NCBI GenBank assembly: GCA_046563655.1
Contig: CM102283.1
Location: forward strand, 7,440,001-7,504,000
Source of the DNA: Yuukianura sp. NJ FZ-2021
Lineage: Eukaryota
DNA length: 64,000 bases
Direction of reading: 5' to 3'
This document shows, piece by piece, positions 5,844 to 64,000 of the stretch. A program made the translations under genes and the position numbers. The notes beneath the pieces were generated by a model. It saw nothing but the letters and a program-made list of their open reading frames with translations. It made no database searches and was not told where the DNA came from. Position 1 is the stretch's first letter; each line of letters starts with the position of its first letter.

Positions 5844-19135
<13,292 letters not shown>

Positions 19136-20081: not shown

Positions 20082-20918
20082 GTTGTTTGGCGAAATTTTG
20101 TGTAGTGTAGTTCAGCATGTTGAATTGAGGTGGGGACAGGGAGTCACAGAAATCTTTTTTTTTTTGAAGCCACAGAAATTGGAAAGTGGAAATTCTGAGA
20201 AATTTTTAAAACCGGAGATTTGAAGCTCTTTGTAACGGGAGTTGAAAAAGTTGAGCAGAAAAGTGACCACTTTTGAATGGATTAATCCCCAAACTTTTTC
20301 GTCCCATTCAAACTATTTCCATACAAAATATTTCAAAATTCGAAAATTTAATTCTGCTATAACTTTTGATCAGCTCAATTCCGAGGAAATCTGATTGCAG
20401 ATTCGGATTCAGCGACTCAAGATCTATGCGAATCCACATTCAAAAGTGGACATTTCGAATTTCCGTTTTTCTAAAAAAAAATGACAACTTTTAGATTAAG
20501 TTGAAGGTTCCTCTCGAAAACTGACCGGAGCTATGCGGAGATCATACGGTCAGAAAAGGCTCCCTGCCGTCCTCGACTTTTTCCCTCCGCTGACATTTCC
20601 ATACAAAAATCAGACATGGGGAAGCCCTTTTCGCTCCGTATAATCTCCGATCTCAATTCTAACAAAATCACATGAAACTTTACTACTGCTCGTATTTGCA
20701 AACTTCTAAAAATTTCAACTTTTTTGCCATTTCTGCAACTCCATTGGTCGGCTCAAGTTGCAGAATACAAATTCACATAATTTAGTGCAAAAAATTGGCT
20801 AAAGACGCCGGTGCAAAATTTTATGAAATTTCAAAAAAAAGTTAATGTTGGCTTGATATACTTGCATAATTAAAATTTTAATTGCATAAAATTGCGTGCA
20901 AAATTTTCCACAAACAAC
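20082..20918 (+). mobile_element. Dispersed ~0.8 kb non-coding repeat, copy 1 (probable non-autonomous DNA transposon)
   Basis: Core 20200-20860 matches the reverse complement of 36120-36780 (e.g. GAAGCTCTTTGTAACGGGAGTTGAAAAAGTTGAG, GATCTATGCGAATCCACATTCAAAAGTGGACATTTCGAAT, CTGCAACTCCATTGGTCGGCTCAAG). Degenerate GTTGTTT...AAACAAC ends. Boundaries approximate. Confidence 0.75.
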
Positions 20919-36060: not shown

Positions 36061-36859
36061 GTTGTTTCGAGATATTTTGCACAAAATTTTGTGCAAATAC
36101 TTAGTTCTGCATGTGTGTCGAGCCAACTTTTTTTTTTGAAATTTCATAAAATTTAGAACGGGCGTCTGTTGGCAATTTTTTGCACTAAATAATGTGAATT
36201 TGTATTCTGCATCTTGAGCCGACCAATGGAGTTGCAGAAATCACAAAAAAGTTGAAATTTTTAGAAGGTTGCAAATGCAAATACGAGCAGTCGTAAAGTT
36301 TCATGTGATTTTGTTAGAATTGAGATCGGAGATTATACGGAGCGAAAAGGGCTTCCCCTTTTCTGATTTTTGTATGGGAATGTCAGCGGAGGGAAAAAAG
36401 TCGAGCGAGGCAGAGAGCCTTTTCTGACCGTATGATACCTGCATAGCTCCGGTCACTTTCCGAAAAGAACCTTCAACTTCACAATCTAAAAGTTGTTATT
36501 TTTTTTGTAGAATAACGGGAATTCGAAATGTCCACTTTTGAATGTGGATTCGCATAGATCTTGAATCGCTGAATCCGAATCTGCAATCGGATTTCCTCGG
36601 AAATGAGTCGATCAAAAGTTATTACAAAATTAAATCTTCGAATTTTGAAATATTTTGTATGGCCATAAGTTTGAATGGAACAAAAAAGTTTGGGGATTAA
36701 TCCATTCAAAAGTGTTCACTTTTCTACTCAACTTTTTCAACTCCCGTTACAAAGAGCTTCATATCTCCAGTTTTAAAAATATATGAAAAATTAAGAGCTA
36801 TACTTCAATAGTTCACAAAATTTCGTGCAAAATTTTTCCCAAAATTCCCAAAAAACAAC
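36061..36859 (-). mobile_element. Dispersed ~0.8 kb non-coding repeat, copy 2 (inverted relative to copy 1)
   Basis: Reverse-complement homology to 20200-20910. Imperfect inverted ends GTTGTTT..ATTTTGCACAAAATTTTGTG (36061-36093) and CACAAAATTTCGTGCAAAAT..AAACAAC (36814-36859). Confidence 0.75.
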
Positions 36860-37022: not shown

Positions 37023-38278
37023 TTAAAATCCAGTTTCCTTTTCGATGAATCGGTTCTCATGATTATTCGGTTTTGACCACCAGCCATAGTGACCTTCAGC
37101 TTTCCATTGCGATGAATATCCCTTCCAAGGTTCATCAATGGCTTCGAAAAACTGGGCTTTGAATCCATGTTGTGAAGCAAAGTTATTCAATGCCTTCCAG
37201 TAAGCAACTTCATTTTCGATAGTGTTGTGGGATCCGTTGAAGCTGTTTCCTTCACTGGGCCAGCCAGTCTCGCCAATTATGACTTCACAATTACCATTGA
37301 CTTTCTTGATTTCAGTCTGCAAGTGCAAAAAGTACCAACCAACTTCTTCAGCAGCTCGTTGAGGTCCCAACTGCGCATGCTCATTGCTTGGGTAAACGTT
37401 GCAGTAGACGTAGTCGGAGTTACGAATTAGGTCGTGCATAATTGCTTGAAGGTCTCCACCAAGCACTGCTCCGCACATCTCTGTTCGGAATCCGACTCTT
37501 AGTCCTTGACTATTGGCTCGTCCTTTATTGCTTTGGATCATGTTGAGAACATTGACGCCTTCACCGTGGGAATGTATGTACTCATTCGTAAACGTAATTC
37601 CCCAGACGGTTCCGGGTGCTCGCCAATTGGCATCGGCAGCAGCTTCGAAAGCATTGTTGATCTCTCGATTTTGATCTTCCGTCTGGTATACTCCAATGTT
37701 GACATTAAGCTTCGTAGAACTCTGTTGATTCATTGTGGCAGCAGCTCGAGCAATTAAGGCGTTACTGTCACATTGATCCCATGGCTTACCATTGTTGTAA
37801 CCTAAAAATAATGACATTTGTTTAAGCTTTAAGTTATGGTATGCAGCAGACAAACAGACAGACAGAGTCGGGGAAAAACATAAAGTAGCAAGCTACTTTC
37901 GCTACTTACTAATAAAATAGGTTAAAATTGAAAAAGAAAAATTGATCAAACTTACCAGCTGTACCCATGCTGTAAGTAGAAATGCTGGAGAAGTAATTTC
38001 GAACTACGGTAAGCTGTGCAATAATGTCATCCACGGTGTACTGGTCCCAGAGACGCGCAGGATCATGATCAGTGTAAGGCGAGAAGGCTACTCCGACAAG
38101 ATTGCGATTGAATTTTTGACCTTGGGAGATGCCGAAAGCCTGCAAACAAAGCCAATAACTTGTTAGAAACTGTGTGAAAATGCCTTTGGACATTCAAAGC
38201 ATAGCTTAGCAACTGTATTTAAAATTTTAATTAATTTAAACTTACCAAACTGACGAGAAATACTACACGTAAACACAT
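37023..38278 (-). CDS. Secreted glycoside hydrolase family 17 (beta-1,3-glucanase / glucanosyltransferase-like)
   Basis: Exons 38278-38246, 38139-37956, 37801-37023. Signal peptide MCLRVVFLVSLAFGISQG. GH17 motifs GVAFSPY, ITFTNE (acid/base Glu), NVYP, IIGETGWPSEG (nucleophile Glu), FFEAIDEPWK, EGHYGWW. Confidence 0.88.
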
Positions 38279-39589: not shown

Positions 39590-41700
39590 TTATTTGTAGT
39601 CGCTGTAGGCTGCTTTGTAGACGCAGACTGTGAACACAATTCCAATGACCTGCAGAAGTCCAATCGCCACTGCAATGGCAATCGCTATGTTCATTTCCGA
39701 TTTGAGCGTGTCCAAAATCTTGGTGAAGCAACCCTACGGCAAAAAACAAGATTGCCAAATAGAGTTTTCAAAAAACTCAGAAAAACCTGTAAACAAATTC
39801 TCCAAAACCACAAAAACTTACGACATTGATGTACGGTTCACCAGCTTGTCCTTCACGGCAACGCTGTGGCACATCGTCAAACCGCGTAGCGCCCGGGTTC
39901 AGAGGGCAGCACGCTGCCGGAACCGGGAACGTCGAATTGGCCTTGTACTTTTTAGCTACTTGGAAATCCGTGTAGTTGTTAACTCCACAACAATGGCCCT
40001 TAAAACGCAAACAGAATTAGCAATCCAAACCGAAAAAAAATCCATTTTCGTCTAAACTTTACCTCTCTCATAATGAAATCTGCAGTGACAGTGAATGGCG
40101 TAGCCTGTTCGCGTGTCGAGTACATACTTTCAATACTCTTCGACAGAATATTCTTCGTTTCAGATTCGGTCTATAACAAAAACATTCAAACTAATAACTT
40201 ATCCATCAATTCAAAATAAATTAAAATCGAAAGTTGCTTTCGTTTTCCCTACTTACTTCAGTTCGGTAAACCAGGAACAGAACGACCACAATAATTTCTA
40301 GGACGAAGATGAGGAACAGGAAAAACGCGTACTAAAAATAAAATTCAATCTCCATATTAGTAAGCACCATTAAATTTCAGTTTTAAGTGCTCATTGATTA
40401 ATTTCATCCCCATAATTTTTAATAGTCTTGACTTCCTTACTGCTCCAAGCAGAAATCTCGATTCCTTCATCGTTCCACAGTATCCCAAGAAGCTGATGAT
40501 GAAAATGAAAGCTCCAAGGGCAATGAAAACGTATCCTGTTTGCTCCAAAACAGTCGCTGGCCCATATTCGCTCACCTGAAAATATCCAATAATCAATGCA
40601 ATAAAATTCGAAAGTACTTTTCAAAATTTTTTTTTATATTTTTTTCAAAATTTTTTCTGTTCATACCTGAATCTGATCTTTGCTTGCCAACTTGAGCAAA
40701 GCTATGAGAGATGAAAGGTCTGCAACCAGCCAAATTCCAAGTCCGAGTAGAGCTGTTCCAAAAATCTAAAACCCAAAAGAACAAAATTACAGCGGAAATC
40801 GTAAAAAACGTAAACGTAAAAGTTTTTTTCACATGAAGCAAATGACGAAACCCATTCAGCAATTTAGCAATTTCGCTCCCACAATTTTCTTTCCTACAAA
40901 TGAAACGTGTTTCGCATCCGTATCCATTCACTAGCGTAAGCTCCATGAATTTATTATTCCCGCCACTCCAAATGCCTTAAATGACCATCAAAAACCGAAA
41001 ACATAAGCAACGCCACAAAAATAACTCCACCATTTCCATGTTGAAGAGTTTCACTCTTCCGCACGACATCCACGCATTGTAACCACCGTAAAAAAAGACC
41101 ATCCTTCATGCGTTTACTACTCCAAATCCGTCAATTATTACACACTCCAAAAAAACTAAAATTGTATCCATTGAATCCAGAAAAAAAAGTCAAAAAACGA
41201 TCAATAAATTCTCTTTTGTCAAAATTTGGAGTGTTAACTCGATAATTACATTTTCCCCACCGAACAAAGAATAACAGTGGGCGGAATACGCATAAGAGAG
41301 AGAGAGAGGTCAACGACCTCCGCTCACGCACATAAGCTGTTTAACTTTTTAAAACAAAGGGCGCATTTCTTAGAAATTTTCCATCATCTTAATTAAGACA
41401 CGCAATGAGCCAGCACAAAATTCCATTTCTAAAATATTCTTTCATGTTCATAAATCATGAAAATCATAAACATGCGTAAACGTCGAATTTAAACTTTCGC
41501 AGAATTTCAGACATCTCTTTGTCTCTCATCACGAAATTGACAAGAATCAATCAAAAAACCGTTCATGCTCATTAAACTGAAACAAATAATTGCAAATTCA
41601 ATGAAAAAAATATCATTTTTCAAAAAAAAAAAAAACTTACCACAAAAATGAAATTGAAAAGGCAGAGACAATACTTGATCACCGACGCTCCCAGATCCAT
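39590..41700 (-). CDS. Tetraspanin
   Basis: MDLGASVIKYCLCLFNFIFV start, FLGYCGTMKES, CCG motif, PAACC, GCF, four TM helices. Exons 41700-41641, 40765-40667, 40575-40441, 40331-40257, 40170-40063, 39998-39822, 39733-39590. Confidence 0.92.
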
Positions 41701-44336
41701 TTTGAATTTAGTTTTTGTTCTCAGGGTCCTTCAGAACCAGTTTCCTTTTAGTCCGTCTTTTGTCCAATACAATTTCACCATTCAATTTCAAATTTCCCAA
41801 AAATTTCAAAAATATGACAATGACAGGTTCTCCTCAGTTTTTGATGAATTCCGGTTGTTCACTGTCTAATTCACTTAGAAAGTGGAGATGAAGCAGTCCT
41901 TATTCAGTTGAAATGCACTTTCAAGTCCACAACCACCGCAAATTCTAGTCTCCTGTAAAAAAAAATCACAAAAGAAACAAATAAGAAAGTTTACTCGTTT
42001 GTTGCAATGACAACAGTAATCAATTCATTCAAAAATTTCAATTTCTACTACGCACAATCTGTCCTTGCAATTTTTTCCTCTCATTTATTTAACGAACGTG
42101 CAAGCAGAAATGATAGTATTCTACCCAAAATTCAAGTTTTTTCTGGTGCACTAAATGCATCATCACCTCATCTCACTTTTAACGAAATGAAGTGCACATT
42201 AATCAAATTTGTGTCACACCATTAATTAACTGCTCTTCACTATACGAACTTCCACACTTTTTTTAACTTAAGATTTTAGCGCAATCTAACACAATTTGTA
42301 CCACAACATCAATTCAATTCCAAATCAATTTTTTACTTTCTTTTTATTTCTTTAAGAGCAATTTAGAGTGGCCTGACCTGACCAAAAATTCTAATAAAAG
42401 AAAAACTTCAAAAACTTGTAACAATTTCACAACTTTCACTTTCTTTCACACCAAAAGATCAACTCCAAATGCGTGTGAAAGAAGCCATGCGGTTCCTTAA
42501 GCCTCAAATTTCATTCCAGGTGAGGAGCTTTGATCCTTCTTACACCAAAAAAGCGCTTCTCATTCACCAGCAGACAATAGAATGGAAAAAAAAGTTTTAG
42601 ACGCTTTCCTTCTAGAAAAGCTTAGAAAATGTTCTAGTGCTTCGCTTGTTCTTCAACTCAACCCGCCCAGTGACGGGACTTAATTTACTCAAAAACGCTT
42701 CGCACAGAAACCTTATTCCATGCTGGAACGCGTCTTCGATTCTTTCCTAAGGTCATTGGCCTTTTTCTTAAATCAACACCACTAAATATGTTAAACTCGT
42801 CGCACTCAATTTCAAAACGTACTTGCCAGCCCATAGCAGAAGTCGCAACTTACGAATTCATTAAAAATTTACAACCGAAAATTCCATCAACAAACAAAAC
42901 ACTTCTTCTGTTCCACTGGATAAAAAACTTTTCCTTTTTTTTTTTCAATTTACTTTTGAATACATAACGAAACCAAGTCAAGCTCAACGAAAAAAAATCG
43001 TGAGAGACACGCACGAAAAAATTTCAACAAAAGACAAATTTCTTATTTAGCGTTTTAAAAAAAATGTTTCAAGAAATATTGACTTTGGTGACAAGCTTTC
43101 GGGCAAACAGAACCAAAGAAATTGCAAGTATTTGCAAACATTACAAAATGAAGAAGGCTTCTCCAACTAAAAAGCAAATTTTCGCGCTAATCAAATTCAC
43201 CTGGCCCAAAATTTGCCAAATTTTTCTGTTTTCTATTGATTTTGAAATCAATTCAAAAAAATAAACTGTACCAGCTCCCGTACCACTGTTAGTTCCTGCC
43301 ACGGATTCGCCAGTCAAGTCTAAAAGTCACTTCCCTTGGTAAATTAAATTCTTCCTTTCGCCAAAACTTTCTGCAACACGCGATGCGGTCAAACCCAAAC
43401 AATTTCCAATTTCAGTGTTGATGTCCCCAAAATGTGACAAATTTTAGTTGTTGACAAATACTAACTTCCTCAAAGCGAAAAAACACCACTTATTTCCAAA
43501 GTCCGCCTTCCGCAAACTACAAATATGAAAATATTCTAACTTTTAATATTGTGAAGCAAAACCGGAAGATTTTTTTTTAGTAAAGACGGAAACTCCTGTT
43601 ACTATCAAAAGGCTACAATTAAGTTGTCCACTGCCCAATTCAAATGCAACAGGCAGAATAAACGCCCTTCTTCCATTTTTACTCAGAAATATCACATCTA
43701 CATCAAGATTTGATTCAACTTCACCTTCCATCTTAATTCTTAACCCTATTATGTTATATCACATCCCAACTAATAACCTGTTCACCAAAATATAGGTCAA
43801 CTACAACAATATTTCAGTCTCACGCCTCAAAAAAAAACCACAAGTTGTTCACCTCACAAAAAAATTGAATCAAACATGTAGCCATAACGTACTAATTTTT
43901 TTTGTAAAGTGAATCCATCAAATGTGTCGTACGTTTGCTTACGTTTGAGACGCTTTTATGAACTTTTCATTTTCATTTGAAATCACAATCACCCATCCAC
44001 AAAAACACAAAAAACCTAAATCCAAAAATTCGCAATTCGACAATGACATTAACATTTTTTCTACGGAACATTTTTACGCAACTTCTCCTCGCCATAGCAA
44101 CGATCAACGATACACCTAAAAATTGCAAATTATGTCAACATTTCTGAACCAAGAAGCAAAAATTCTGAAAACCTCACAGCAGCGGTTCTGAATATTTGAA
44201 ATCTAAGCAGAGTCAGGAATCGAATCATATTTTTTTTTGTGTCACTTTTTGAAGAAGCCCCTTATTCCTTACTCCGAACAATTCTACAAATACTTCATAG
44301 AATTTCAACTATAATTCGTACATTGTCAATTCAGTT

Positions 44337-47300
44337 ATGCAAAGAAACGAACGAACTCCAGACAGAGGAGGTGGAGGTGACACGTACGTCCAAGCATCAG
44401 GCGGAACCCGTGGTGGTGCTGGAACAACATTTTCCAAAGGCACCAAATCCAACATCGGCATTCAAAAACCACGCCCATTCAAAACTCCCGCACCACTCTT
44501 GGGTTCTCCATCTGAATTCATGCAAGAAGCCCTACTCAGAGGCTTACTTCCTTCAGCAACTGCCCATGCGCAAACAACGACTCAAGAAATCTGTCGTACA
44601 TCTAAATCGAGTTACGAGTACGACAGTTTCCCGCCAATTTTGCTTCAGCGTGAAGCAACCAAATCATCTACCAAACAACCTCCAGAGTCATGCGCCTCCT
44701 GTTCAGAATTCCCGCCCAGCCAAGGTCACTTGCTCGAAGAACTCCGAGCCCAATGTCGGCGGGAAAATCGGAATCCAACTCTGTACCGAATTGCAACTCC
44801 TTTAGAAATCTCCCGAATTCCAGAACATCTCCGGAACCTCAAGACGATTCCACTGGAACCGCCGAAAGATGACATCGATGACGACACTCCTCCAGACGCT
44901 CCATTACCTTACTACCTTCCTAAAGCACCTTCCAGTGACAGTCCGAAGAAACAGGGCATCAAAAAACCGAAACATCCAAAGTTAAGTCGGAAGCCACAAG
45001 CATATTGGCGTTGGGAGAAACCAGACAAGGCAAAACCCATCGAACTGCCTTCTGCCTGTCGAATTGTAGAAGAAGCTCGGCAACCGGAAATTCCCACCCC
45101 CGCGGAGCCGAAGAAACCACATCTAGCATCACTTGTAGACTTCGAAGACGGAGAAAGTGAATCAGACGAAGAACTCATGCCTGAATTTACATTTGAAATT
45201 GTCCAAGAACCACCTACACGCAAAAATCCAAAACCAACCACTTCATCCACGCATTGCGGACCACAAATGTAATGAATCAAAATTATTTCAAAATTAGTCA
45301 CTTGAATTAGTCATTTAAACTTTTTAAAATGAATAAGTCATGTTTTTGACAAAAACAAAAGTTTGACGAATTTCGAACACTGAAAGTATCTAAATTCAAA
45401 GCAAAATTTCAAAAATTTTGGAAAATTTTTCACATTTTGATCTTCCAGGCCTCAGAAGCAGGACGAAATTCACACGGCGGAGTACAACATTTACCGCGGA
45501 CCAAAACTGCTGATCAAAACACGTAGCCATGAGATCATTTTGCATAACGACCCGGATTACGAACACAACACTCCAATCAAGCTCTTCATTGAACCATTCG
45601 ATGACTTTGCAGCCACTTCCAGTACAAAAACCCTAAAAATGCAATTTCAATTAAAATTTAGTACAAAAATTTAACTTTCAACATTTTAAAATTTCCTAAA
45701 ATTCGATTTCAGAATGCTGCGAAATCCGAAAAATTACTTTGCTCAACGAAGGAACTACAGCTATAAGGTTCCAGTGGATCAGAGCTCCTCCAGGACCTTG
45801 CATTCAAAAGTTTTTGGGAAACTCTGCAAAATTGCTCGACGCTGGCAAATCTCTACGACGTCGACACTTTCCTCTTGCAGTTCAAGCCGCCGCAAATCAA
45901 AAGCATCAGCAGCATTGTAACTTCAAATACAAAAATCCCGCAAACAAAAATTTCTTTCAACTTTTTCAAAATCCTAAAACTCAATTTTTGTTCAAAAGGC
46001 GGTGACATCAGCAGTGGACCACGGAAAATGGCTCTGCATTTGACAACTTCCCGTCGCGTCAACCCAGCTTTAACTCGCGCAATTAAAATTCTGAACAACA
46101 CTGTTAGCTCTGACACTGCTTTTCGAAACTTGCTCCTTCTTCTGTCACTTCGCGTTCCAAGATTAAAACGCGAACTGATTCGGCGCACAAAACGTCAACT
46201 TAGCAGCCGAACTCTTCCGAGACAAATTCACGACCTTTATCTACGACTTCGGAAACAAAGACGTGTCAAGTACTACCAACCTGTGAAAGCTAATAGACGA
46301 CGACTCCAGTCCCGAGCCAGTTTTGCATATCACGAGGACTTACCAAAAGGCAACTCAAAATTTAGACATGTGCACCAACAAATTCGATAAAATTTGACTT
46401 TAACAGTTTTAGAGTTGTGCACCAACAAATTCGATAAAATTTGATGTTCAAAATTTTAGACGAGTGCACTTGTGACCTGCCATCGGACGGGGACTCATCG
46501 GATTCGTCCCAATCAGATGCTTCCTACAACTTCTTCCTGTTTCCCAACAAACTGCCACACGAATGTGTCTGTTCCCGCCCAGCATCTCCACCCGCCGCCC
46601 CACCCACAACCGCGCTTCAAGAAGAATGTGGTCCCGAGGACACTTCAACTCCACCAATCACGATGCTGCCGGAAGACATGATTTGTTTCTACCCACCACA
46701 AATGGAATGTATCTGCGAAGGAATCTGTATTTGCGAACCGCCAGCTGAAGATCAAGGAATCTGCGTCTGCGGTCCTTGCTGTATCTGCAGTCCGCAAGCA
46801 TCTTGGGGAGCATTGAAATACTGGAGTGCCGGTGAGCAGGAAACGCCAAGTTGTACTTGCATCGGAGTTTGTTCCTGCGGCCTCCCAGCCACGCCTCCTC
46901 CGACACACCGTGCCGCATCCCAAGTTAGCTGCATTTGTATCGGAACCTGCGACTGCGGCCAACCGAAACCGGAGTACATCAACTGTACTTGTGACGGTAC
47001 TTGCACTTGCGAACTGCCTCCAGAGGACGAAAGTTGTCCCGTCGAAGCTCAATGTGCAGAAGATGCTTGCCCATGTCCAGACCCATGTCAGTGCGACCCT
47101 CCAGAAACAATTGTTTGCACTTGTGGACCAATCTGTACATGCATTTCTCCACCATTCTCAGCAAGTTGTTCGCAAGGTCACCTTCCAGGAAGTTGTCTCT
47201 GCTCACCCTGTACATGCGATCCATCTCCCGAAGATGTCGTTTGTACTTGCGGGCCATTCTGTACTTGCAAAACTCCTCCAGCATCGGACGTCTGCTTTCC

Positions 47301-49234
47301 AACATTACCCATCATGCCTCCAGAAGACTGTACTTGCTCAGCTTGTAAGTGCGGTGACTTTCAAAGCTGTGAAAACAAGCTCATGAGCCGCGGAACGCAA
47401 CTTCATCCATTGTGCTACGAACCCCTTACGCCGCCGCAGACTCAACCGGAGGCCTTGGAGACAGAACAAGCTGGAGAGGACTATGAGGTTCCCGATTCTA
47501 GCAAAACCAGGCCGAGTTATTTCCTACGATTCTACAGTGACCAATTCGCAAATACATGCATGGGGGAAGACGCTGGAGAGGGAGCCATTTGCCCTCCAGC
47601 TCCAGAAAAGACAATTCCCAAAAAACTTCCGGTAATTTTGAATGTTACTTATCTTTTTCATCTTTTCAATACTGCTAATTTCCAAAAAAAAAATTCACTT
47701 CCACAGAAAATCCGAAAAACCCGCAAAGTGGAATTCATCAAACCAAACTGTCCCGAATTCATTTTCTGCGAACTTCCACAAATACTCCTTCCAGGACAAA
47801 AGTACAAGTTTGAAATCATGTTTCGTCCAGAAAAACCTGGAATTTACTCCGAAACGATTTACTTGTTGACACATCCACGACTAACTTCCGGTGCCTACGG
47901 AATTCATCTCCGTGGACTCTGTATCAATCCAGAAAGTCCTCCAGAAACTTGTAATTTTCTGGACAATGTCCAGGACGACCGAGGCGACCATGAACCTAGT
48001 CTCGATACGTCCTGCATAACAAAAACTCTCTTTTCAAAAATATACGATCGGCAAGCGAACCAAGCCCTTCACTCTATCATGGATCATGTCCTTCACTTTC
48101 AGCCTGAACAAAAGTTGACATTTCCATACGGGTAACATATACAAATACAAAAATCCCAAAAACTCGTTTGTCACAAAAATTACAAAAATCTGCTGAAACA
48201 TTCAAAACTCGTCTCCTTTTATAGGCGATTGACGTCCGAAGCCATTTTCAAAACTCACAACCGTCACCTCCATTACTATCCAGACTCGAGTGAATCAGCG
48301 CTACATATTGTCAAAACGCTGCTCCAACTTCTTGTAGCCAAGACCAACATTGTCGACAATCCCGCTATTTGCGAACGTAACATCACGGTAACACGAATCA
48401 TTCTCCAAAGTTTCCCGCCAAATAATTGTGTTTCAGCCAATGTACAACCTTCCGAAATCTCTAACTTTTTCAAAATTTTGAATCTTTTGTTCAGAAATTG
48501 TACTACGAATTGCTCAAACCGTCTTCGGAACAAGATTATTTCGATGCCAACCTACTGTCAGACGAAGTGGAAGGTTTGCTGGCCGAATTTCGTACCATTA
48601 CGACAGAACTTACGAGACCTCCAGTATTCATGGGCATGTCCGCTGACGAACGTTGTGACGTTGGGCTATCAGTTTCAGTCCATGCAATGGTAGACGAACT
48701 CACAGATTCGTTCAACAGGATTTCAGAAACCGTCAAAAATAAATTTACAACACACATTTGGCGAACCGTATTGAACGAGAAATTGACCAATGTACGAGAA
48801 GCCGAAATTGAAGCAAAACTCCAAAACCAACGTCTAAGAGTATGAATCACCAAATTCACCAACCCAATTAATCGGTAATCCATTAACACCCGAACTTAAC
48901 ATTTTCAATTTGTTTCTAGATGGAGACTAAACAACGAACGATGAAATGGGACATTTCTACCCAGACCGGAGACAATTCCGTACCGACCTTAGACGACGAA
49001 GACGACATCCCTGTACCGGAAGTTCCTGCGGAAGACATTGAATATCAACTGCATCGAATGTACGCAGAATCCATTCGGGAATCACGTCTCGCTTCTGCGC
49101 AGAGCATAATTGCAAATGCTATTGAGCGCATGGTTTCCTTCGTGGACGCTTCTGAAAATCTTTGTGACTATGAAAAGCAACAAGTGATTATCACCCCAGG
49201 CGATGACGATCCCTTTAGATGCTGCCGCTACTAG
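44337..49234 (+). CDS. MYCBP-associated protein-like (MYCBPAP/AMAP-1; ciliary/sperm) with a large Cys-rich insertion
   Basis: Predicted exons 44337-45268, 45449-45621, 45713-45916, 45999-about 46319/46349 (donor uncertain), 46460-47631, 47707-48131, 48225-48387, 48495-48839, 48920-49234. Motifs recalled from MYCBPAP: LLNEGTTAIRFQW, ILLPGQ..F.IMF...PGIYSE...LLTHPRL...I.LRG, EAIFKTHNRHLHY. Start codon and family assignment are tentative. Confidence 0.62.
46370..46444. repeat. 28-bp direct duplication (GTGCACCAACAAATTCGATAAAATTTGA) in an intron
   Basis: Copies at 46370-46397 and 46417-46444. Confidence 0.85.
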
Positions 49235-52200
49235 TTTGAAAACCAATCAACGAAACAAGCCAACCGACTTTTGAGAATCACAAAAGACAACTTAGATGAA
49301 AATATAAAACAAAAACACTATTCACCAAAAAAATAAAATAAAATAAATTTAAAAAAAATGTTTTTTACCTATTTCTGCCACTTTGCTAACAAAACTTATT
49401 AGAATCGACAGTGTGTTTTCGACAGTTTTTTTTTTCACTTACTCCGCTCGGAGCCTTCACCTTAACAATGATCGATTCGTAAAAAAATTCAACCCATTTT
49501 TTAAAAAAGCCTTTGTCAGTATTCTAACCTTGAAGCTTTTCAAAACACGAAACTGGACAATTCAAACAAACCAGTCGATTTTCAACGTGTCACGAACACT
49601 AAAACTTTTCTATTATTGACGCAAGTTCTCATCCATTAGTGTCAGGACATCCCTAGAGTACTGGCAAACCCACGCGCTGGCAAAACTTACGCTTGACCCA
49701 TATACTTCAAAAACATCCAGGACACTTTTTCAACCTAGCATTATGTTTTTCCAGATTTAGGACAAGATAGCCAAAAAATTTCACACCGAATTTTAACACA
49801 GTCGTCACAATTCCAAATTCCACAAATTCGCCAAAAATAAATTTTTATCTGCTGAAGAAACTGCAACAAGTCAAATACTAATCCCGATCTGTTAAAAACA
49901 AAAACAGGAAAAGATTTTTGAATTTTGAAAATTTTGTTTTCCCTCATAATTTTTACGATTCCAAAATTTCCCACGCCCTGGCCATGATCTTTCTGCCTTC
50001 AAAACATTTCAAGTTCCTCTTCGTGACGGCGACATCAAAAAAAGTGAGCTCAAAATTTTGAATTATTGAAACAATCTACTCCAAACGGAATCGAAAAAAA
50101 AGAAGAAAACTATTGACACGCCAAGGACAAAAGTACAAAAGTCAGTCATGAACATGATAAAGCAATTCTCGTTTCTCTAATTTTCCTACACTCAAAACTC
50201 CAAAAACCAAAATCCAACCAAATCCGAATTTCAAAAATTTCCATTTCAAAATTACATCCATCTCACACCCAATGCTCCCACAAGCTCCCACAAAGTATCT
50301 CTTTAGCACTTTTACTTTTTTAGCACCTTGACCTTGCCCGTCAATTTACCACCACAGTAGTTTACCAATTCACAAGATCATCTCTTCTACCAACAGACAT
50401 CTCTTTAGTAGCCAACTCTAACCAATTCGACCTTGATGCACTTAAAACCAAAAAGTAAAAATTTGCACTTTCCACACCCCAATTCCAAAGAATAATTTAA
50501 GCATTCCACAAGCATAGAATTAAACCAAACCAAGTATGAATTGCCGCCAGCATTTTCACGCCTATCAAAAACTCTTCAACTGTTAAAAGAACAAAACGGA
50601 ATCAATTTCACTGCCCAATGCCATTTACACCATGTTCAAAAATCTTAACACTAATTTAATTGCTCACGATCAAAATAGTTAACCACAGGATGTTAGTAGT
50701 TAAAAAAGAACCACTCTAGACTAAACACTTCTGTTGAAGGAAACAATTGATCATAAAAAAGATTTCGATTTTTATCAAGTGCCAAAACCCATTATTAAAA
50801 TTCACTAATTAAATGTTGCACATAAAATTTTCCAAGAAAATTTTTCGTGTTCCTCTTCCATCTAATATCGTCATGGTCCGTTCGTCATCTTTAAAATCCA
50901 AAATCTTACAAGCTCCAACCATCCTTAAATCTTGCTTCCTAAAACTTCTTTTGCAATTTTACAATTCCGCTTCCTATTCCGCTCCTGCCTTTAACTCAAC
51001 GTTAACTAACGTTAATCTTCACATTCGCAAGTCCTTTACCTTGCAAAAATCTTTAGTCGCAGAGTACAATGCATTCATTCTACTTACATAATACTCCGCT
51101 CCTTAAACCTTAAAGCCTCTGAGATACTTGGTCCTCATGACCTTAATTCGCAGGTTCTCATCAACCTATAACTATGATTGAGGGTGGTAATGGCAGCACA
51201 TCAGTTAATCAACTGCTACTTGCAAGTACTTTGGTACTGGCAGCATCGCCAGCAGGCTATCTTCCAATCACATGACGCTCCTGTACCAACTACTTAATTG
51301 CAACGGACTTAATTGAACATTTGCCATTGTTCTGACTATCTTCCTGCTCAAAGTTGAAACTGATTCGTATTCCCCACTGGTTGGTGGTTTCTTTGTGTAA
51401 CATACTAAGCGAAACTTCCTACTGTGGAAGACGCAGCATCTCTCTTTCTACAATGATGAAGATGATGAAGGAAGATGCCCTGCATTTGCACTGCATCCAA
51501 GATTTTTATGGAAGATTAGGATATGGATGTAAACTAACTAAAAAGAAATTGAAACTCGAATTCATAAAGTTAAGCAGCCAAAAATTAAAAAAACTAGGTT
51601 GCTAGTCTACGCCCTTTCATCTCCACAGGCCACAAACTAAATTGTCAATTTGAAAACATGTACGCAGAAAGACACCAGACCCACCCTGTTAAAGGTGCGT
51701 CGTGTGAAGACATTCACAATTGATGCTAATGTGAATTCTAAACTTAAACTTTAAGAATTAGAGTTAACGTTAAGAATAACTACCATCACAGTTAGGCCAC
51801 TCATCATCACTTCTCATCCTTGCTTCCGGGTATCTTTTAGTCTTAAGTCTGGGACTTAAACATGACAAAGTCACACGCTATAAGTCGACACACAACAAAA
51901 GTTTAACAATTTTGCGTTATACAAATGAGTGACTTTTATAGCTTTGGGTGGCAGGCAACGGCGAGGGCGGAGGAGGAAAAATTTAATTTTTCAAAATTGG
52001 AGCAAACCTCAGGCAATGTACTCGTTAATTTCAATTTTTTTTTGAATTTTAGGAAATTAGAAAGCAGCAAGAAATTTAGGTAAGAGTTGAATTGAAAATT
52101 GAATGTATGCTGAATGTTTTCTCAGAAAATCGTAGTATATAACTTGCGGTTTAGAATTCATTCGTTCATCACTACTCGAGTGACCTGTCTGATGATCTCT

Positions 52201-53783
52201 GTCACAGAAAATAAGGAAGATGCGGAAAAACTGGTCAAGCAAGTGAAAGAAGATTAATCTCAAGGCAAATGTGTCTATGCAGTTTACTTACAAACGTTGG
52301 ATCTCCATTGCTACGTTATCCTAAAGCCCTAAAGTAAACCTCGGGATTGAAAAGCATATGGGGCAGTATGATACTGCCAGCATCACAAAGACTATAAATT
52401 GAACCTTGTATTTTGTATAGTAGTAAGTGCCCCTAACACACATTTCGAAACGAAACTCCCCTCATATGAAGAACAGTCGTAAATCTTTCATCTGAAGCCT
52501 AATTAAAACTACGTTATTGTTAAAACTCAAAATGGTAGATAATCTTTTGTTACAAAAGTTTTGTATTCTTTGTACTAAACAAAAGAAATGAATGAATCAC
52601 AATTTGTCGATGGTATCAAGGTTGTTAAGTACTAAACTGTGGTGATGACGGTCTTTCCACTGAATGACAAGTAGTCATCATCACCATAGTTGAATTTAAA
52701 GTTAAATATTTATGAATGAACGAAGAAGTATTCCAAAAAGTAATTAAGAGCCATAAACTCTGCCACATGCAGACAGTAACTCACTGCAAACTGCCAACTT
52801 CTGAAGTAGTCAATTCACGTTTTGGCAAAAGTTAACCTCGCTCTGATTTGTAACATATACAACTTAACTGACACTTTTAAAAGTTATGTTTGGGGCAAGA
52901 GACAAGGACAACAGAGAAAAACTGGTGCAGAAAACCTAAAAAAAAGACTAACATAGTTGCTTTTTGGGCCATGTTGACTTGGTTGGATATTGCAAAACAA
53001 TGATTCAGTAAGTCATAATTGTTTATATAATGGATTAAACATAAAGTTTGTAAACAAAGGTTAGTTAATTTAGGCGCTGTCACATTTTTGAATTTTTAGT
53101 GACATAGGCTCCTAGAGTGAACAAATAGTAACGGAGTTTTTGAATTTTTTTTAGTGAGAAACCGTCGAAAAACTTCAATTTTCTTGCGACTTTTCACCCG
53201 CCATAATGAATTTGGTAAAAAGGGAAATGGAGAGTTTAAGTAAACGTTAACTTTAAACAATGGTTTGTTACAAATATTTTAACAAATTGCTCAACTTCAA
53301 CAGTTCAACTGTTTGTACAGTTGGTGTCGGCATCGGTTTGTGAGGTCATTCTCTCACAAAGTTCGTGCAACGAGGACAATGTGCACCACCAGATAATTGA
53401 CTTGGAACACAAAGAAAATCGTTCCGTCAGCATAACATTGTGACTCAGATCAAATTCAAAAGGAACTGTTGTACTTGATAAGCTAAGCTACACGCAACTA
53501 AGGATTCAATTTATGTTATCCGGTTTCCAGTATCCAATGATTTCATCTTCAAGTTCAAGAATCATAACCATGACACCGCCATTATGCCTTCTCTTCTCGT
53601 TCTCACGTTCCCTCAAGGGCACTCTTTCCCTACATTGTTTCACGATTAAGAATGCAACTCAACAGGTCAAACTACCATGTACATGTGTCATTGTCTCTTG
53701 TTCAAGATAGATGATGATGAATTAATCGGTCTATCGTATGGATTCCGTAACTTAACTTATGAAATGAAACGTAATTTTCTTAC

Positions 53784-54110
53784 CTTCGCTTCGTTGTCCA
53801 AATCTCGAGTCTATTGTTTGCGAATCTCTTTGTTGTCGCTGTAGCTTCAGTTCTGGAGCGATTCAGTGGACTCAACAGGTGAAATAGTGCAAATAAGTTG
53901 CAAATTCGCTGGTCTGTACGCTTCTTCAGTCGCGAAAAAGTTGGAAGAGTAGCTGTTTGCAGAGCTAGAGCAGAAGGAGAAGTGAAGTCCAAGGCGAGGG
54001 AGGAAGTCTACACTCACCAATTTGTTCTTTGTTCTAACAATTTTGATCAACACAGGGTAGATAGTACAGTACCTTGTTGTAGAGCGTACAGTTGTCACTA
54101 TTGGAACGTC
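53784..54110 (-). other. Putative non-coding 5'UTR exons (probably of the tetraspanin gene)
   Basis: Minus-strand donor GTGAGT at 54017-54012, acceptor CCAG ending at 53853, and strong donor AAG|GTAAGA at 53783. Candidate downstream acceptor TTTTTTTACAG ends at 41953, just upstream of the tetraspanin ATG. The upstream end is approximate. Confidence 0.45.
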
Positions 54111-54795
54111 TAGAGGTCAAAGGTCAAGCAGGAGGAAGTGGTCGATTGGTCCGTGACGAAGTGGTGTCGTTCCTGGAAGCACTGGATTTGAATTTGGAAA
54201 AGAAATTGTAAGAAAAAATCTTCCTTTTTTTGAGTTGTGTTTTTCCCTCCGTTTTCCTCCCCTTCGTCTCACTCACTGAGACGCCAGACGCTAGAAACCA
54301 AACGCCACCACCACGTTATAACGTCAACGTTATGCCAAATACTACACAACAGTGGGCCCAAGTTTGCAAAATTTTCGCACTTTTCATCCCCCTTGCCAAT
54401 TTTTGCACAGAATGAGTTTTTTCGCACGCCTATCTCTCGTACGTCTTATTTTCTCCCCCTTCAAGCTTAACGTATGGGGCGCAGGGTTTCAAGGTATCCC
54501 GACTTGTCAGTGCCCACTGGGCTTTGATTTTTTTTTATGACCGGATGTCACCTTGACTTTGAAAAAACGATGACGAATTTGAGTAAAATTGGCGATTATA
54601 ACCAAACATGAAAATTTTTATGCATTTTTGCAGCGTGACATCTTTCTAGTGGGGAAGGGTGGGCTTTTATAACACGATTTTAAATTTTCGCGCGTATCGA
54701 AATCATAAATTATGATTGGGTGAGGTACGACCTATTAAGTCGTTGATTGAATGTTTAATGCATTCGTTTTGATTCTTTAGAACAAGGAAGCTGAG

Positions 54796-56471
54796 ATGTC
54801 GTCATTGAACAAACTGATTCTTCAACGCCCCAGGGATTCTGAACATTCGCAACCGGAAGGCTCTGGTCAATTTTCTCAAGGCAGTGGTTCGTCACAGCAA
54901 GCACCCAAAGTGCCTGTCCTTTTGAAACGCCCGGAAGGACCAACTGCGACACAAGGACCAGCGATAGTCTCAAGAACACTGGGACAATCACCAGCCATTG
55001 TCACTGAAGACAAAGCTAGTCAGCAGACCAAAGTCGTCCAGGCGGAAAAGAAGAAGCATACTATTCTTCAGCGAACCGGTACACCGACAGTGGGTGGTGA
55101 CCAGGGAGATCGGGATCGTGTATCTTCTTCTGGAGGAACTAATTTGTATGATCAATTGAAACCTTATGAATTTCCTTACGACAAGGCAGTTCCACTTATT
55201 CACAATGACTTATCGTTCAAATCTAATCGGAAGTTCCTCAAGTCTCTCAAGTCAACATATGACTACTTGGTGGTTACTGTCATTGGACCACCGAGATCAG
55301 GTTCGACAAGAGCTTAACTTAACATGAAATGATTTATATTATAAAACGTTTTTTAAACGTTTTAGGAAAGACGACCATTTTGAACTACTTGGCGGGAGCT
55401 CCAGAAAAGACTGAATTCAACTGCGAACCGAAAATTTTCACGCCGCGGAAGGACATCGACGATGAAAAGCTCTGCACTTTCTACGTTACTCCCCAGAATG
55501 TCGTGTTCATCGAAATGGCTCCCATCTTCAATGCCTCGGCTGCGGTTGACCTCATTCCAACTGTTGACAAGTATTCTACGCTCGAATCCGTGACCACGGT
55601 AAGTTTTAATGAATGACTAATTGATCAATATTAACTTAACCCCAATTACTTTGTATGTTTATGTTCCTGGTTATATTTTTTGTGAATCAGGCCTGGAATT
55701 TGCGGCTGATGCGTTGGACACTCTCCGTGAGTCATCTGGTTATCGTCACCAGTTTGGCTGTCATCGAGCCCAAGACTGTTCAGTTGATTCACTCAGCAGC
55801 CAACCTTCAACCTATGGTAAACCCAGCCGACAAAACATCTTTATTAATTCTGTGGCATGCATTTCGAATTTCGAGAAGTAACAAGAATATTTCATAAAAA
55901 AATAAAAATAACTGTTGTCAGTTTTCATCAGCTTGTCTAGTCACTGACGCAGACGCTGATGGCATATGACTACTAATTATTTTGTTTTTCCAGGAAACTG
56001 CTTTTGGTGGGAATTCACATCCTGAACTAGTTTTTGTGGGAAACAAATGCTGGTTACCTTCAGAATCCAAAGATCGATTGACCTCACTCTGCAGCACTGC
56101 GGATATCATTGGATTCGGAAGACGCACGAGGCTAAAGCCCAACAGTTTTCTGTTGCCACACTGCAAAGAATCCATGGTTCCAACTCGTCAGGCGTAATGA
56201 CCATTTTTGAAAAACATTTCAATTTTCGTCGAAAACTATGGCTGAAAATAAGTATCAATTTTTCTGGAATAGATACGAAGAATTTCGAAGAAAAATCTAC
56301 GAGTACAACCATTGGACACGGTCAAGTTTTGCAGATGACGAGGCAGAGGACGGCCAAGCAAAAATTCCGCAAAGCTTAACGCTGAACGACTGGTTCACTT
56401 TTGCTTCAAATGCTTGGGAAGAAATGGCCAATCCAGCATATTTTCAAGATTATGTTAGACTCTTGCACTGA
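54796..56471 (+). CDS. SMG9: Nonsense-mediated mRNA decay factor SMG9-like
   Basis: Exons 54796-55300, 55366-55598, 55691-55816, 55994-56193, 56273-56471. Disordered N-terminus, DYLVVTVIGPPRSGKT P-loop, FYVTPQNVVFIEMAPIF, LSVSHLVIV, HPELVFVGNK, LTLNDWFTFASNAWE..FQDYVRLL. Confidence 0.8.
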
Positions 56472-60823: not shown

Positions 60824-63590
60824 TTAACTCAAAAGCTCAGCTTCAGTTGCATCAAATTCTGGATTGGCTGACTCAACTTGCCTCGTAACTGGCTCGTCGT
60901 CGTTCGCCACTTCAATCGACTCTGATTGGCTCGTCAACTGTGATGTGTCAATGTAATGAAATGTTGGCTCCAATAATGGATCTTCTAGCGTTTCTTCAGC
61001 GATCTCTTCATCGCTGAATTCAGCTTTTATGATTTCTTCCAGCTCAACTTCATCAGCGTCCGGATGATTCAGAACTTTAAAGGCTCTGACACTCTTGATA
61101 CTCCCTTTCGGCCATTGACTATCCACTCGTTCCAGTCGCAGCTCCAGTCTCTTCTCATTTTCTATTGACGCTGACTTTTTGCGACGTTTGGATGTTAGAA
61201 ATCGCTTCGTCGGCTTAAGCGATCTCCCACTCTTTGAGAACCGTGGAAGCTTCACTTCTTCAAAATATTCAGCATGTTCAAAAAATTCTCGAAAATCTTG
61301 GTCCGAGTCCTCAGCATCTTCTTGCTTGATCACCTCTTCATCATCTTCATCTTCTTCATCTTCAACAGGAGACACATAATCTTTGAATTTGTCCTTGTAT
61401 CGCTCAGTATGTCTCGCTTGCATATGCATTCTCATTTTAAATTTTCTTGAGAATCCAGCACGATCGGGACACTGTGGACAGAAGTACCGCTGAACTCCGA
61501 GTTCACGAAACGAGCGATACTTGGGTATAGTTGATTCTGGATGGACCAATTGGTAATGGCTAACCATTTCTTTCATCTTGCGTGAAGTGAAGATACACAG
61601 TTCACAGACATAGTCCCTTGGAAAGTGTGTTGATTGGTGAAGAATTGCTCTCGTAGAATCTCTACAAGGCTTCTGACAAATCAAACAAGCTTTTCCGAAC
61701 TTATTGTAGATCCCTCTTGCTTGTTGACCGTGGCCATTTTGAATGTGAACTTCTAAGCCTTGTTTTCTTGTGAATCCTGTAAAAAATAGAAGAATTTGAA
61801 AAAAAGTAAGGAATTTCAAAAATTGACGCTGGAAACTCCAAAGTTTTGCAATACTTTGGCTGTAACTGGATTACCTTGTATGGCAGGACATTGGTCACAA
61901 AAATACTTGCGTTTCCTTACTGGTGGTTTCTTTTCTACTTTTGGCAGTTTCTTTTCATCGGGATGTTGTTCGGAATAGTGCTGACGAAGTTTAAGCATAG
62001 TCTTGAATCCAATTTGATCTTCTTGTGGACACAGGGAGCATTTGTAGTAGAAAGTTTTACCGTAAAGCTCTTTTAGTTCTAACTCTGACAGATGAGTTCT
62101 TTCGTGTACTCTTTTCCGGTGAAAGTCTTTGAACGGTTTACCACAAATTGAGCACGTAATTCCTCTGTCTTTATGATTATGCCGGATGTGAGTTGCCAAA
62201 TTCCGTAAACTCGTACAAACTCTGCCACAGAGCTGGAAAAAAGCGAAGAAATTCAAATTGTTAAGTAACTGGGGTAGTAAATTCAAAAATTATAGCAGAA
62301 GAATCAGTTACATCACACTGGCAATCCATTTTCATTCGATTCTTGAGTATTACGCCTTCATGGGTATCTCTGATATGAGCTTTCAGCATCCAAGTAGTTT
62401 TGTAACTCTTGCCACATCGATCACAAAAGTAATCCCTCGTTGTGTTGATATGAACAGAAACTTCATGGCGCTTCCGATTAGACGTGTCATGGAACTTTCG
62501 ATCACAATAACGGCAGGGATGCATTATGCCTGTATAAATGTGTTACGTAGATTTAGAAAACTTTGGATTCGATTAATCTTACTGTTGATATTGATTACCT
62601 GAATGCTTCCGCCTGATGTGTTTGCTCAATTGAACCTGGGATTTGAATGTACTGGGGCATAGACGACAGCGTCCATCGGGATGGGCAGGAATCGTTTCAC
62701 TTCGAGGCAGCCGAATCGCTGGTTCTCTTTGACGTTTTTCTTTTTCGATTTTAACATGAGTTCGATTTGGCGTAAGTTCAGTACATTCAACTTCCATAGA
62801 CCGTAGTGCAGTTTCAAATTCGTCATCATCATTTGACTCAGGCTCCTCTGGTATATCTGGTTGACTGAAAATTACTTCCTCTTCTACTTGGGCTTCGAAG
62901 TTCGGATGAGACTTTGTACCTTCACTGACTTCCAGAAACGTTTCGCCGGCCAGAACTAGACTTTGGAAGGCATCCGACGTTTTGGTTTTCGTCAGACTTG
63001 GCATTGAGGATTTGTAGGCTGAAAATGAATAAGCGGTATTCGGTAAAATAAGTTCATACTTAACATCTTCTGGAAAAAATATCGCCTGACAGTAGCTCAC
63101 CTTGAACAAGCCTGGATTTGATACTATGAGTTCCTTCAATATTTGGAGAATTTGGTAAAGAATTGACCATCAGTACGCTAACGTCTGTCTTCAAACTTTC
63201 TATTCCCTTTTGCAGTAGTTCCAACTCCGCTATCCAGTCTTGTAATTGGTTCATTTTTTGCGAACAGGGGATACAAAATGGATCGGTGAGGCACGCCAGT
63301 CGAAGCATATTTTGTCTCTCTTCGTCTTTTATGGCAAACAGATCACAAAATGTAAGAAGTCGAGTAGTTGATGACTGAGACACTTCTGTCTGATTTACGG
63401 TAGTCCAGTAGCTGTCATTACAGACGAAGCAAAATATTTGAGAAGGTGGAAGTGCAAATATAACTTGTCCAGGTTGTACCGCATCTGGAGGGGCTGCAGT
63501 ATTTCCAGTAGTAGTTTCAGTGTTTACTGTGGAAGTACTTTGAAGTTGTTTTCCCTGTCGCTGTTTCCGGGGGTGGTTAGCGTTCTTCAT
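60824..63590 (-). CDS. C2H2 zinc-finger protein with an N-terminal ZAD-like (CxxC...CxxC) domain
   Basis: Exons 63590-63101, 63018-62599, 62529-62312, 62232-61875, 61776-60824. CFVCN...PFCIPC followed by a coiled coil, then about 10 C2H2 fingers and an acidic tail. The true start may be further upstream. Confidence 0.85.
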
Positions 63591-64000
63591 GCTGCTGTAT
63601 TTTCTCAAACTGCAAGACAAATAAGACAAAAACTACTTTAGCACGTTATTATTCCATGACCAAGATTGTAGTTCACTTATTAATTAGCCAGGTTAACCCG
63701 TTTAACTGTTAATTAGCTCACAATTTCAATTAATTAAATCACTTCAAAAACGTAAACAATGATAATTTTTTGAATTCCCCAAATTCCAATTTTGAATTTA
63801 TCAGATTCCCGCCAAAACTAAATTCTTGATTGTTACACTCCTGCCTAAACATTAATTTAACAATAACAACGAATGATTAAAATTAATATAATGAAAAATA
63901 TAACTAATTAATTATTCATTAATCAAGCTGGCTAATTATTACATTTCATTAAGTTCGAGGTCCTCATGGTACATGAGCACATAATAAAGTATACAGTTCC

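Follow-up and report, generated by a model that had tools for sequence, protein, structure and literature searches.

The forward strand of the 64,000-nucleotide (nt) stretch of Yuukianura sp. NJ FZ-2021 contig CM102283.1 analysed here, which we call the window and in whose positions coordinates are given, carries a gene for MYCBPAP in which one conserved domain is interrupted by an insert of ~550 amino acids (aa) that contains a Cys/Pro-rich module. Judged by comparison with a second copy in the same genome (G000, 98.7 Mb) and with a gene from a second species (L008), the insert is coding, under selection and lineage-restricted. As the overall explanation we favour, with confidence that stands about halfway, a MYCBPAP scaffold in the sperm-axonemal C2a arm, with a domain loop that has been expanded by ~550 aa carrying Zn-thiolate units.

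Host protein and position of the insert

The predicted gene has nine exons between 44337 and 49234 (+), which give 1359 codons and one stop when joined. Every intron has an AG acceptor and a GT donor, the sole exception being a GC donor at 46350, and for exon 9, just one of the 16 boundary combinations tried gave canonical sites together with a single terminal stop. The original prediction, made from the DNA letters, had described the sequence flanking the Cys-rich segment as MYCBPAP-like and named a profile search as the check. Exon 6, which is in frame with exon 5, matched Pfam PF14646 (MYCBPAP) with 46.1 bits against a cut-off of 24.5 (E 4.6e-12, profile positions 296-361), bearing out that assignment. 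Exon 3, with the NEGT motif, matched profile positions 267-286 weakly and below the cut-off (E 0.044; E 0.0033 for its L008 counterpart), and aligned motif for motif with three homologues, P0009, P0010 and P0012, that exceed the cut-off across both halves. The genome holds two PF14646 matches, the window gene and its copy. Searched with exon 6, 1.84 billion representatives yielded 62 matches. Sequences were retrieved for 16 of them, and of the ten looked up, two had names, Orchesella dallaii CAL8144241.1, annotated as 'MYCBP-associated protein' (P0010), and Allacma fusca CAG7718728.1 (P0012), both from springtails, which indicates a springtail gene. In a tree of 15 rows, the window gene, its copy and L008 formed a starred clade (99/95) inside an otherwise open group.

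When a 21-sequence orthologue profile (A7) was compared with 177,635 PDB sequences, only two matches were obtained, mouse MYCBPAP (9ijj_v, E 1.8e-17) and Chlamydomonas FAP147 (7n61_0I, E 5.2e-9), both with the two motifs aligned; exon 6 alone found mouse MYCBPAP 9ijj_v as its sole match at E up to 1, weakly (E 0.15). Fold was compared on the orthologue P0009 and not on the window protein. In the P0009 model, which is weak (predicted local distance difference test, pLDDT, 50.9), strands 102-123 and 184-234 flank a low-confidence stretch at 129-180, and among its best fold matches are C2 chains of Chlamydomonas and an ASH/PapD-like domain. The two PF14646 halves, the orthologue profile and the P0009 fold therefore indicate that the NEGT and LPGQ motifs are parts of one ASH/PapD-like domain, as the original prediction had it for NEGTTAIRFQW and ILLPGQ. 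The host gene is MYCBPAP/FAP147. MYCBPAP is characterised by a place on the C2a projection together with CFAP65 and CFAP70; elsewhere in the genome, a locus at G000:C7:8154871-8158988 (L024-L026) gave four CFAP65-type Ig matches over the cut-off, and may encode a C2a partner or another ASH-domain protein.

Related genes were also sought in a metagenome scan, in which 153 pattern matches led to three confirmed loci that represent two distinct genes, L008 and the more distant L009, because L009 and L010 are identical over 1133 nt. The spacing from NEGT to LPGQ is 591 aa in the window protein and 648 in L008, versus 187 in L009, 77 in P0010, 75 in P0009, 61 in P0012 and 38 in P0050, and ~39-40 aa in mouse and Chlamydomonas by hand count on the profile alignments. 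The insert consists of the end of exon 3, the basic exon 4 and exon 5, and comes to ~550 aa rather than 300 because exon 4 also sits between the motifs; the earlier account had placed it between the right motifs but, overlooking exon 4, had given it ~300 aa. Between the motifs there are 59 Cys in the window protein, versus none in P0010, P0012 and P0009 and 2 in L009, and the Cys module is absent from all six other orthologues or homologues with a measurable motif spacing. P0010 and P0012 are gene predictions in which exons could be missed, so the firmer negatives are P0009 (419 aa and probably spliced, from a 1284-nt contig) and L009 (genomic). Word-index searching for longer proteins (E up to 0.001) returned 0/71 and 0/4207 candidates in two rounds; since neither recovered P0010 or P0012, whose lengths fall within the ranges covered, these results are silent on distribution. 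No such insert was found in the titles and starts of abstracts of the papers listed on MYCBPAP, on MYCBPAP with Cys-rich sequence and on springtail MYCBP-associated proteins, from a library without most subscription papers, in keeping with the undescribed status originally proposed; annotation tables of springtail genome papers could list the gene.

Composition, conservation and origin of the insert

The module frame (46462-47379, +) encodes 306 aa with 52 Cys (17.0%), 47 Pro (15%) and 22 CxC motifs, an exact count that agrees with the ~52 Cys in ~305 codons first estimated by hand. Ten CxC-x2/3-CxC units (8 CxC-x3-CxC and 2 CxC-x2-CxC), separated by linkers of 7-21 aa, hold 41 of the 52 Cys; the seven units listed earlier are all present, and that list lacked three more, at 46762, 47068 and 47194. 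Composition-preserving shuffles of the module (n=10,000) contained a mean of 0.44 units and a maximum of 5, and none reached ten. The module is acidic (41 D/E versus 8 K/R), only 3 of its 52 Cys stand next to K/R, Thr, Ile or Val occupies 14 of the 20 x-positions of the units, and aromatic residues (F/W/Y) number 14, with 39 in the 443 aa of the corresponding L008 exon. At the DNA level, the pattern C-[I/T]-C-x-G-x-C-x-C had ten matches in the genome, versus two for the reversed control; eight were in the gene and its copy, and the other two were poly-Cys stretches without a module. No Pfam family exceeded its cut-off for exon 5, the module or the L008 Cys exon (P0066), and an atlas search with the module gave no usable match.

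Exon 4 is basic (29 K/R versus 6 D/E) and has a conserved Leu-rich core. It had no Pfam match over the cut-off, and the atlas returned only three matches, at 0.76-0.80, which is chance level; its sequence occurs twice in the genome. The exon (45999-46349 in the window; L008:2962-3351) is a candidate for a new small domain without a known family.

The second copy of the gene, on G000:C2 (L003), is 94% identical to the window gene, and all nine of its exons are open. Within the module the two copies differ by 32 synonymous and 21 non-synonymous changes, a ratio of non-synonymous to synonymous change per site (pN/pS) of 0.187 (Fisher P 5.5e-10); for the other two frames the ratio is 0.89 and 1.97. 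None of the 52 Cys is lost in the copy, and nine of them have a synonymous codon change. Exon 4 shows 4 synonymous and no non-synonymous changes, and pN/pS is 0.17 for exon 1, 0.03 for exon 3 and 0.54 for the tail of exon 5, which evolves faster.

The same chain of exons is found in the second species. In L008, exons 1-6 have the phases (2,1,1,1,0,2) seen in the window and L003, with no stops in any of the three, and identity to the window is 43% over 164 columns for exon 1 and 44% for exon 4. The L008 Cys exon was the sole match to the window exon among 1856 candidates (E 1.6e-23, 33% identity); Cys makes up 10.2% of the whole exon. Six of the ten units recur in the same order, Trp/Phe/Tyr near units 1-2 are conserved, and the four central units are replaced by at least seven 21-nt repeats (L008:3963-4146) that encode unrelated, Cys-containing heptads. 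In ungapped alignment, 39 of 46 Cys match L008 versus 84 of 236 other residues, a difference that is inflated by the tendency of aligners to anchor on Cys.

L009 has at the position of the insert a single 212-nt exon, phase 1 to 0 and ending in Pro, and shows no similarity to exons 4 or 5. Because L009 has an exon at the same position and phases, and because repeats are found at the DNA level among the module units, we infer that an ancestral linker exon became exon 5 as its CxC-x3-CxC unit was duplicated internally, and that exon 4 was added.

The second copy lies in a duplicate of ~10 kb, in which window 43414-55961 corresponds to L003:884-8001 plus L012:1-3343 (G000:C2) at 91-95% identity. 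Its order is circularly permuted, running through window 43942-52605, 54767-55961 and then 43414-43949, the arrangement that a circular intermediate or a tandem repeat would leave. Two 320-nt elements resembling miniature inverted-repeat transposable elements (L003:564-883 and L012:3344-3663), with 13-nt terminal inverted repeats and absent from the window, flank the duplicate in direct orientation, each adjoining an 8-nt sequence that repeats window 43942-43949; they are 100% identical, though the segment that they enclose is 6% diverged. The second copy may be an allele, a paralogue or an effect of assembly. A haplotype or whole-genome duplication as its source found no support in one test, in which window 14200-18300 had one match (1 candidate scored).

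Transcript structure and proposed role

It is very probable, on the sequence comparisons, that all exons belong to one transcript, and with the same high confidence we expect them to be spliced into one mRNA and the insert to loop out of a domain whose halves still co-fold. Intron 4 has an ordinary length and composition (110 nt, 71% A+T; 81 nt, 72% in L008) and holds no AATAAA or ATTAAA. Both genome copies have its GC donor; they differ by an indel of ~52 nt, the acceptor region being duplicated in 47-nt steps of which the C2 copy has one extra. Intron 5 is in frame without stops in the window copy only (it is 103 nt with stops in L003 and 84 nt with stops in L008), which rules out its read-through as coding sequence.

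Counting against a single transcript are the need for a non-canonical GC donor, a phase-0 GT at 45880 within exon 3, and an in-frame ATG located where exon 5 begins, or close by, in the window (46444), L003 (3450) and L008 (3435). The GC donor and the ATG, together with the exon 4 frame, which continues for 13 codons beyond the donor to a stop, would fit a split gene or second promoter, in which exons 1-4 stop at 46388-46390 and exon 5 begins a separate protein at ATG 46444. We consider this arrangement improbable, since similarity to L008 reaches the exon 4 donor and ends there, L008 has a canonical GT at the same codon position and phase, the gap from stop to ATG is merely ~53 nt without a polyadenylation hexamer, the sole acceptor change between the genome copies (TAG/CAG) preserves a valid acceptor, and the ASH domain would fall into two chains. 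Whether there is one transcript or a split gene, the Cys module is joined in the predicted protein to the C-terminal half of MYCBPAP. Least probable of all is alternative splicing of exons 4-5, with the axoneme built from a short MYCBPAP of the ordinary kind. The symmetric phases of exon 4 (1-1) would let it be skipped in frame, and the phase-0 GT at 45880 could join exon 6 directly, but skipping of exon 5 shifts the frame because the phase is 1 at the end of exon 3 and 0 at the start of exon 6 (in the window, L003, L008 and L009), and the scanned 3' part of L008 exon 3 (from 2770) has no phase-0 GT.

To our knowledge, the central pair in hexapods is restricted to sperm. Within the axonemal central apparatus, the C2a arm has MYCBPAP/FAP147 as its stalk or rachis (PMC13345628, PMC9113940); the protein organises the arm, which collapses in mice without MYCBPAP (PMC13345628), and PDB 9IJJ is tied to the mouse sperm central apparatus (PMC12297659). 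Collembolan sperm axonemes are without accessory tubules (PMC7140630). In mammalian sperm tails, Zn shields the thiols of outer dense fibres until a later oxidation that brings stiffening (PMC7589359), and Drosophila Cys-Gly-Pro proteins are required in axoneme assembly (PMC10645079).

In the mechanism that we propose, the loop of the ASH/PapD-like domain would have been enlarged by ~550 aa through an added basic exon and an expanded linker exon, and each four-Cys unit would bind Zn2+ while the sperm tail is built, resulting in a row of small thiolate knots set on Pro/acidic spacers. In mature sperm, the units may oxidise to disulfide cross-links, as is described for outer dense fibres of mammals. 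The insert would serve structure and not detoxification, supplying bulk, stiffening and protein contacts on the C2a arm, and, more speculatively, the basic exon 4 segment may attach to the tails of tubulin or to the acidic Cys segment. We favour Zn-thiolate beads because of the C2a role of the host, the oxidation of Zn-shielded thiols in mammals and the Drosophila Cys-Gly-Pro proteins, and by this analogy we give Zn2+ binding during assembly, with possible later disulfides, an even or marginally better chance.

Several observations weigh against this explanation. AlphaFold2, run on the module from 3 sequences, gave no fold (pLDDT 29.6), and the weakness of the P0009 model limits any argument from fold. 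The retention of every Cys in the second copy is modest evidence, as the chance of zero Cys changes at the non-Cys rate is P 0.02, and the number of units appears not to be fixed, because four central ones are swapped for heptads in L008. Sites resembling the X-box (RFX), one of which also lies ~200 nt 5' of the ATG in L008, occur at the level of chance (4 found versus 2.8 expected in the window; 1 versus 0.26 in L008), and their pattern was picked post hoc with the sites already seen; they are a lead only.

The proposal has a stronger form, in which the ten units are a zinc-to-disulfide redox switch in the C2a stalk, holding Zn at assembly and becoming cross-linked on maturation. We regard this form as doubtful; if it is true, sperm without accessory tubules would gain a stiffened or locked central apparatus, and chemistry like that of outer dense fibres would have moved onto a core scaffold of the central pair. 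It is rather unlikely that the Cys form purely structural Zn knuckles or protein-binding modules, without later oxidation or cross-linking. Four Cys per unit in an intracellular host, x-positions whose Thr, Ile and Val suit small beta-hairpins, and the conserved aromatics near units 1-2 would be consistent with knuckles, but sequence cannot tell them apart from Zn binding followed by oxidation, and the variable unit number and the L008 heptads fit a bulk property better than specific domains.

The original prediction had described the module as a metallothionein-like fusion, and a Zn/Cd/Cu store or detoxifier derived from a metallothionein gene is a reading to which we assign very little probability. 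Metallothioneins have 15-30% Cys and a low mass, mostly <100 aa or 10 kDa (PMC7826182, PMC4229212), CxCxxxCxC is a metallothionein motif (PMC8836122, PMC11242308), and multimodular forms exist (PMC7826182); in Cys content and in its CxC and CxCxxxCxC motifs the module agrees with the prediction. Membership and origin did not hold up, given the size of the protein, the aromatic residues, which metallothioneins lack, the Pfam results and the linker exon of L009. The best Pfam metallothionein score was for PF02068 on one sub-piece (E 7.2; 7.5 bits versus a cut-off of 31.8), the 14 aromatics, the acidic charge, the 15% Pro and the scarcity of K/R beside Cys point elsewhere, and the units lie 7-21 aa apart, in contrast to contiguous units among the motifs in PMC8836122. 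TGCRCNC, the consensus of the metal-responsive element through which metallothioneins are induced by metal, does not occur in the ~2.9 kb upstream of the ATG or anywhere between 41366 and 46461. L009 has a Cys-poor linker exon at the same position and with the same phases. The module looks like an expanded linker exon rather than a captured metallothionein gene; it is not a member of that family, and may bind metal like one.

Even slighter is the probability that the loop is a mostly neutral, disordered expansion whose Cys have no particular role: its length ranges from 38 to 648 aa among homologues, it is Ser/Glu-rich in L009, no fold is predicted and the exon 5 tail evolves faster, but the low pN/pS of the module, the retention of all Cys in the copy, the inflated but marked matching of Cys to L008 and the six units in conserved order across species argue otherwise.

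It is not rare for sperm proteins to carry lineage-specific loop expansions. An insert of ~550 aa within the ASH domain, kept in two divergent species, marks a surface loop tolerant of whole new modules, here two conserved ones without a family (the basic exon and the Cys units), and predicts extra mass on C2a that should be directly visible by cryo-electron tomography of sperm. It opens no new metal-detoxification pathway.

Features of the window and comparison with known systems

Table 1. Predicted features of the MYCBPAP gene and its surroundings in the window.
Feature	Position	Strand	Remarks
X-box (RFX)-like site, lead only	44088..44101	+	~250 nt 5' of start codon; 1 mismatch to consensus
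Exon 1: start codon and Pro-rich N-terminal region	44337..45268	+	open in joined model
Exon 2	45449..45621	+	AG/GT ends; phase 2 to 1, phases same in L008 and L003
Exon 3: N-terminal strands of MYCBPAP ASH/Ig-like domain (NEGT motif) and loop start	45713..45916	+	PF14646 267-286, below cut-off; aligns with P0009, P0010, P0012
Exon 4: basic, Cys-free, phase 1-1; first part of insert	45999..46349	+	117 codons, GC donor
Intron 4, GC-AG, 47-nt tandem duplication of acceptor region	46350..46459	+	repeats D4/D5
Exon 5: Cys/Pro-rich module (46462-47379) and acidic tail	46460..47631	+	phase 1 to 0; ten units between 46708 and 47352
Intron 5	47632..47706	+	75 nt, GT/AG, phase 0 in window, L003, L008
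Exon 6: C-terminal strands of ASH/Ig-like domain (LPGQ motif) and next helix	47707..48131	+	PF14646 296-361
Exon 7	48225..48387	+	AG/GT ends; open in joined model
Exon 8	48495..48839	+	AG/GT ends; open in joined model
Exon 9 with stop codon	48920..49234	+	closes 1359-aa protein

Among the neighbours, a 289-codon open frame at 37023-37892 (-) resembles a glycoside hydrolase family 17 beta-1,3-glucanase and may have been acquired horizontally; sequence of this kind may be present near 20498-20790 and 36180-36491 too, two stretches that match L013. The exons at 39777-40620 (-), upstream of MYCBPAP on the opposite strand, are presumably of tetraspanin type, those at 14219-18238 (+), which have one match in the genome, are assumed to be phosphatidylinositol 4-kinase-like, and 60824-63632 (-) presumably holds a C2H2 zinc-finger gene with acidic linkers.

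The window protein shares with MYCBPAP/FAP147 both ASH/Ig-like halves and the downstream helical region, but is longer, at 1359 aa versus 932 in mouse and 976 in Chlamydomonas. The springtail MYCBP-associated proteins (P0010, P0012, P0009 and L009) have the NEGT and LPGQ motifs and their flanks, in contrast without the basic exon and the Cys module, and their loop of 61-187 aa already exceeds that of mouse. Metallothioneins (the plant CxCxxxCxC forms, invertebrate forms and multimodular mollusc forms), which are characterised by metal-thiolate clusters, resemble the module in Cys content and motifs, whereas the module is a 306-aa segment of a 1359-aa protein, neither small nor free-standing, and is aromatic, Pro-rich, acidic and Lys-poor, with spaced units and beta-branched x residues. 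The Drosophila Mst(3)CGP proteins (Mst84D, Mst87F), which PMC10645079 defines by a repetitive Cys-Gly-Pro (CGP) motif and whose transcription is male-specific, in spermatocytes, and the Cys-rich proteins of mammalian outer dense fibres are likewise Cys/Pro-rich and linked to the sperm tail. The module differs in having no tandem CGP repeat, with four scattered CGP tripeptides in the window and one in L008, and no Pfam similarity to either group. It is built into an axonemal scaffold rather than being a separate accessory protein, and a functional analogy with the two groups is possible (PMC10645079, PMC7589359).

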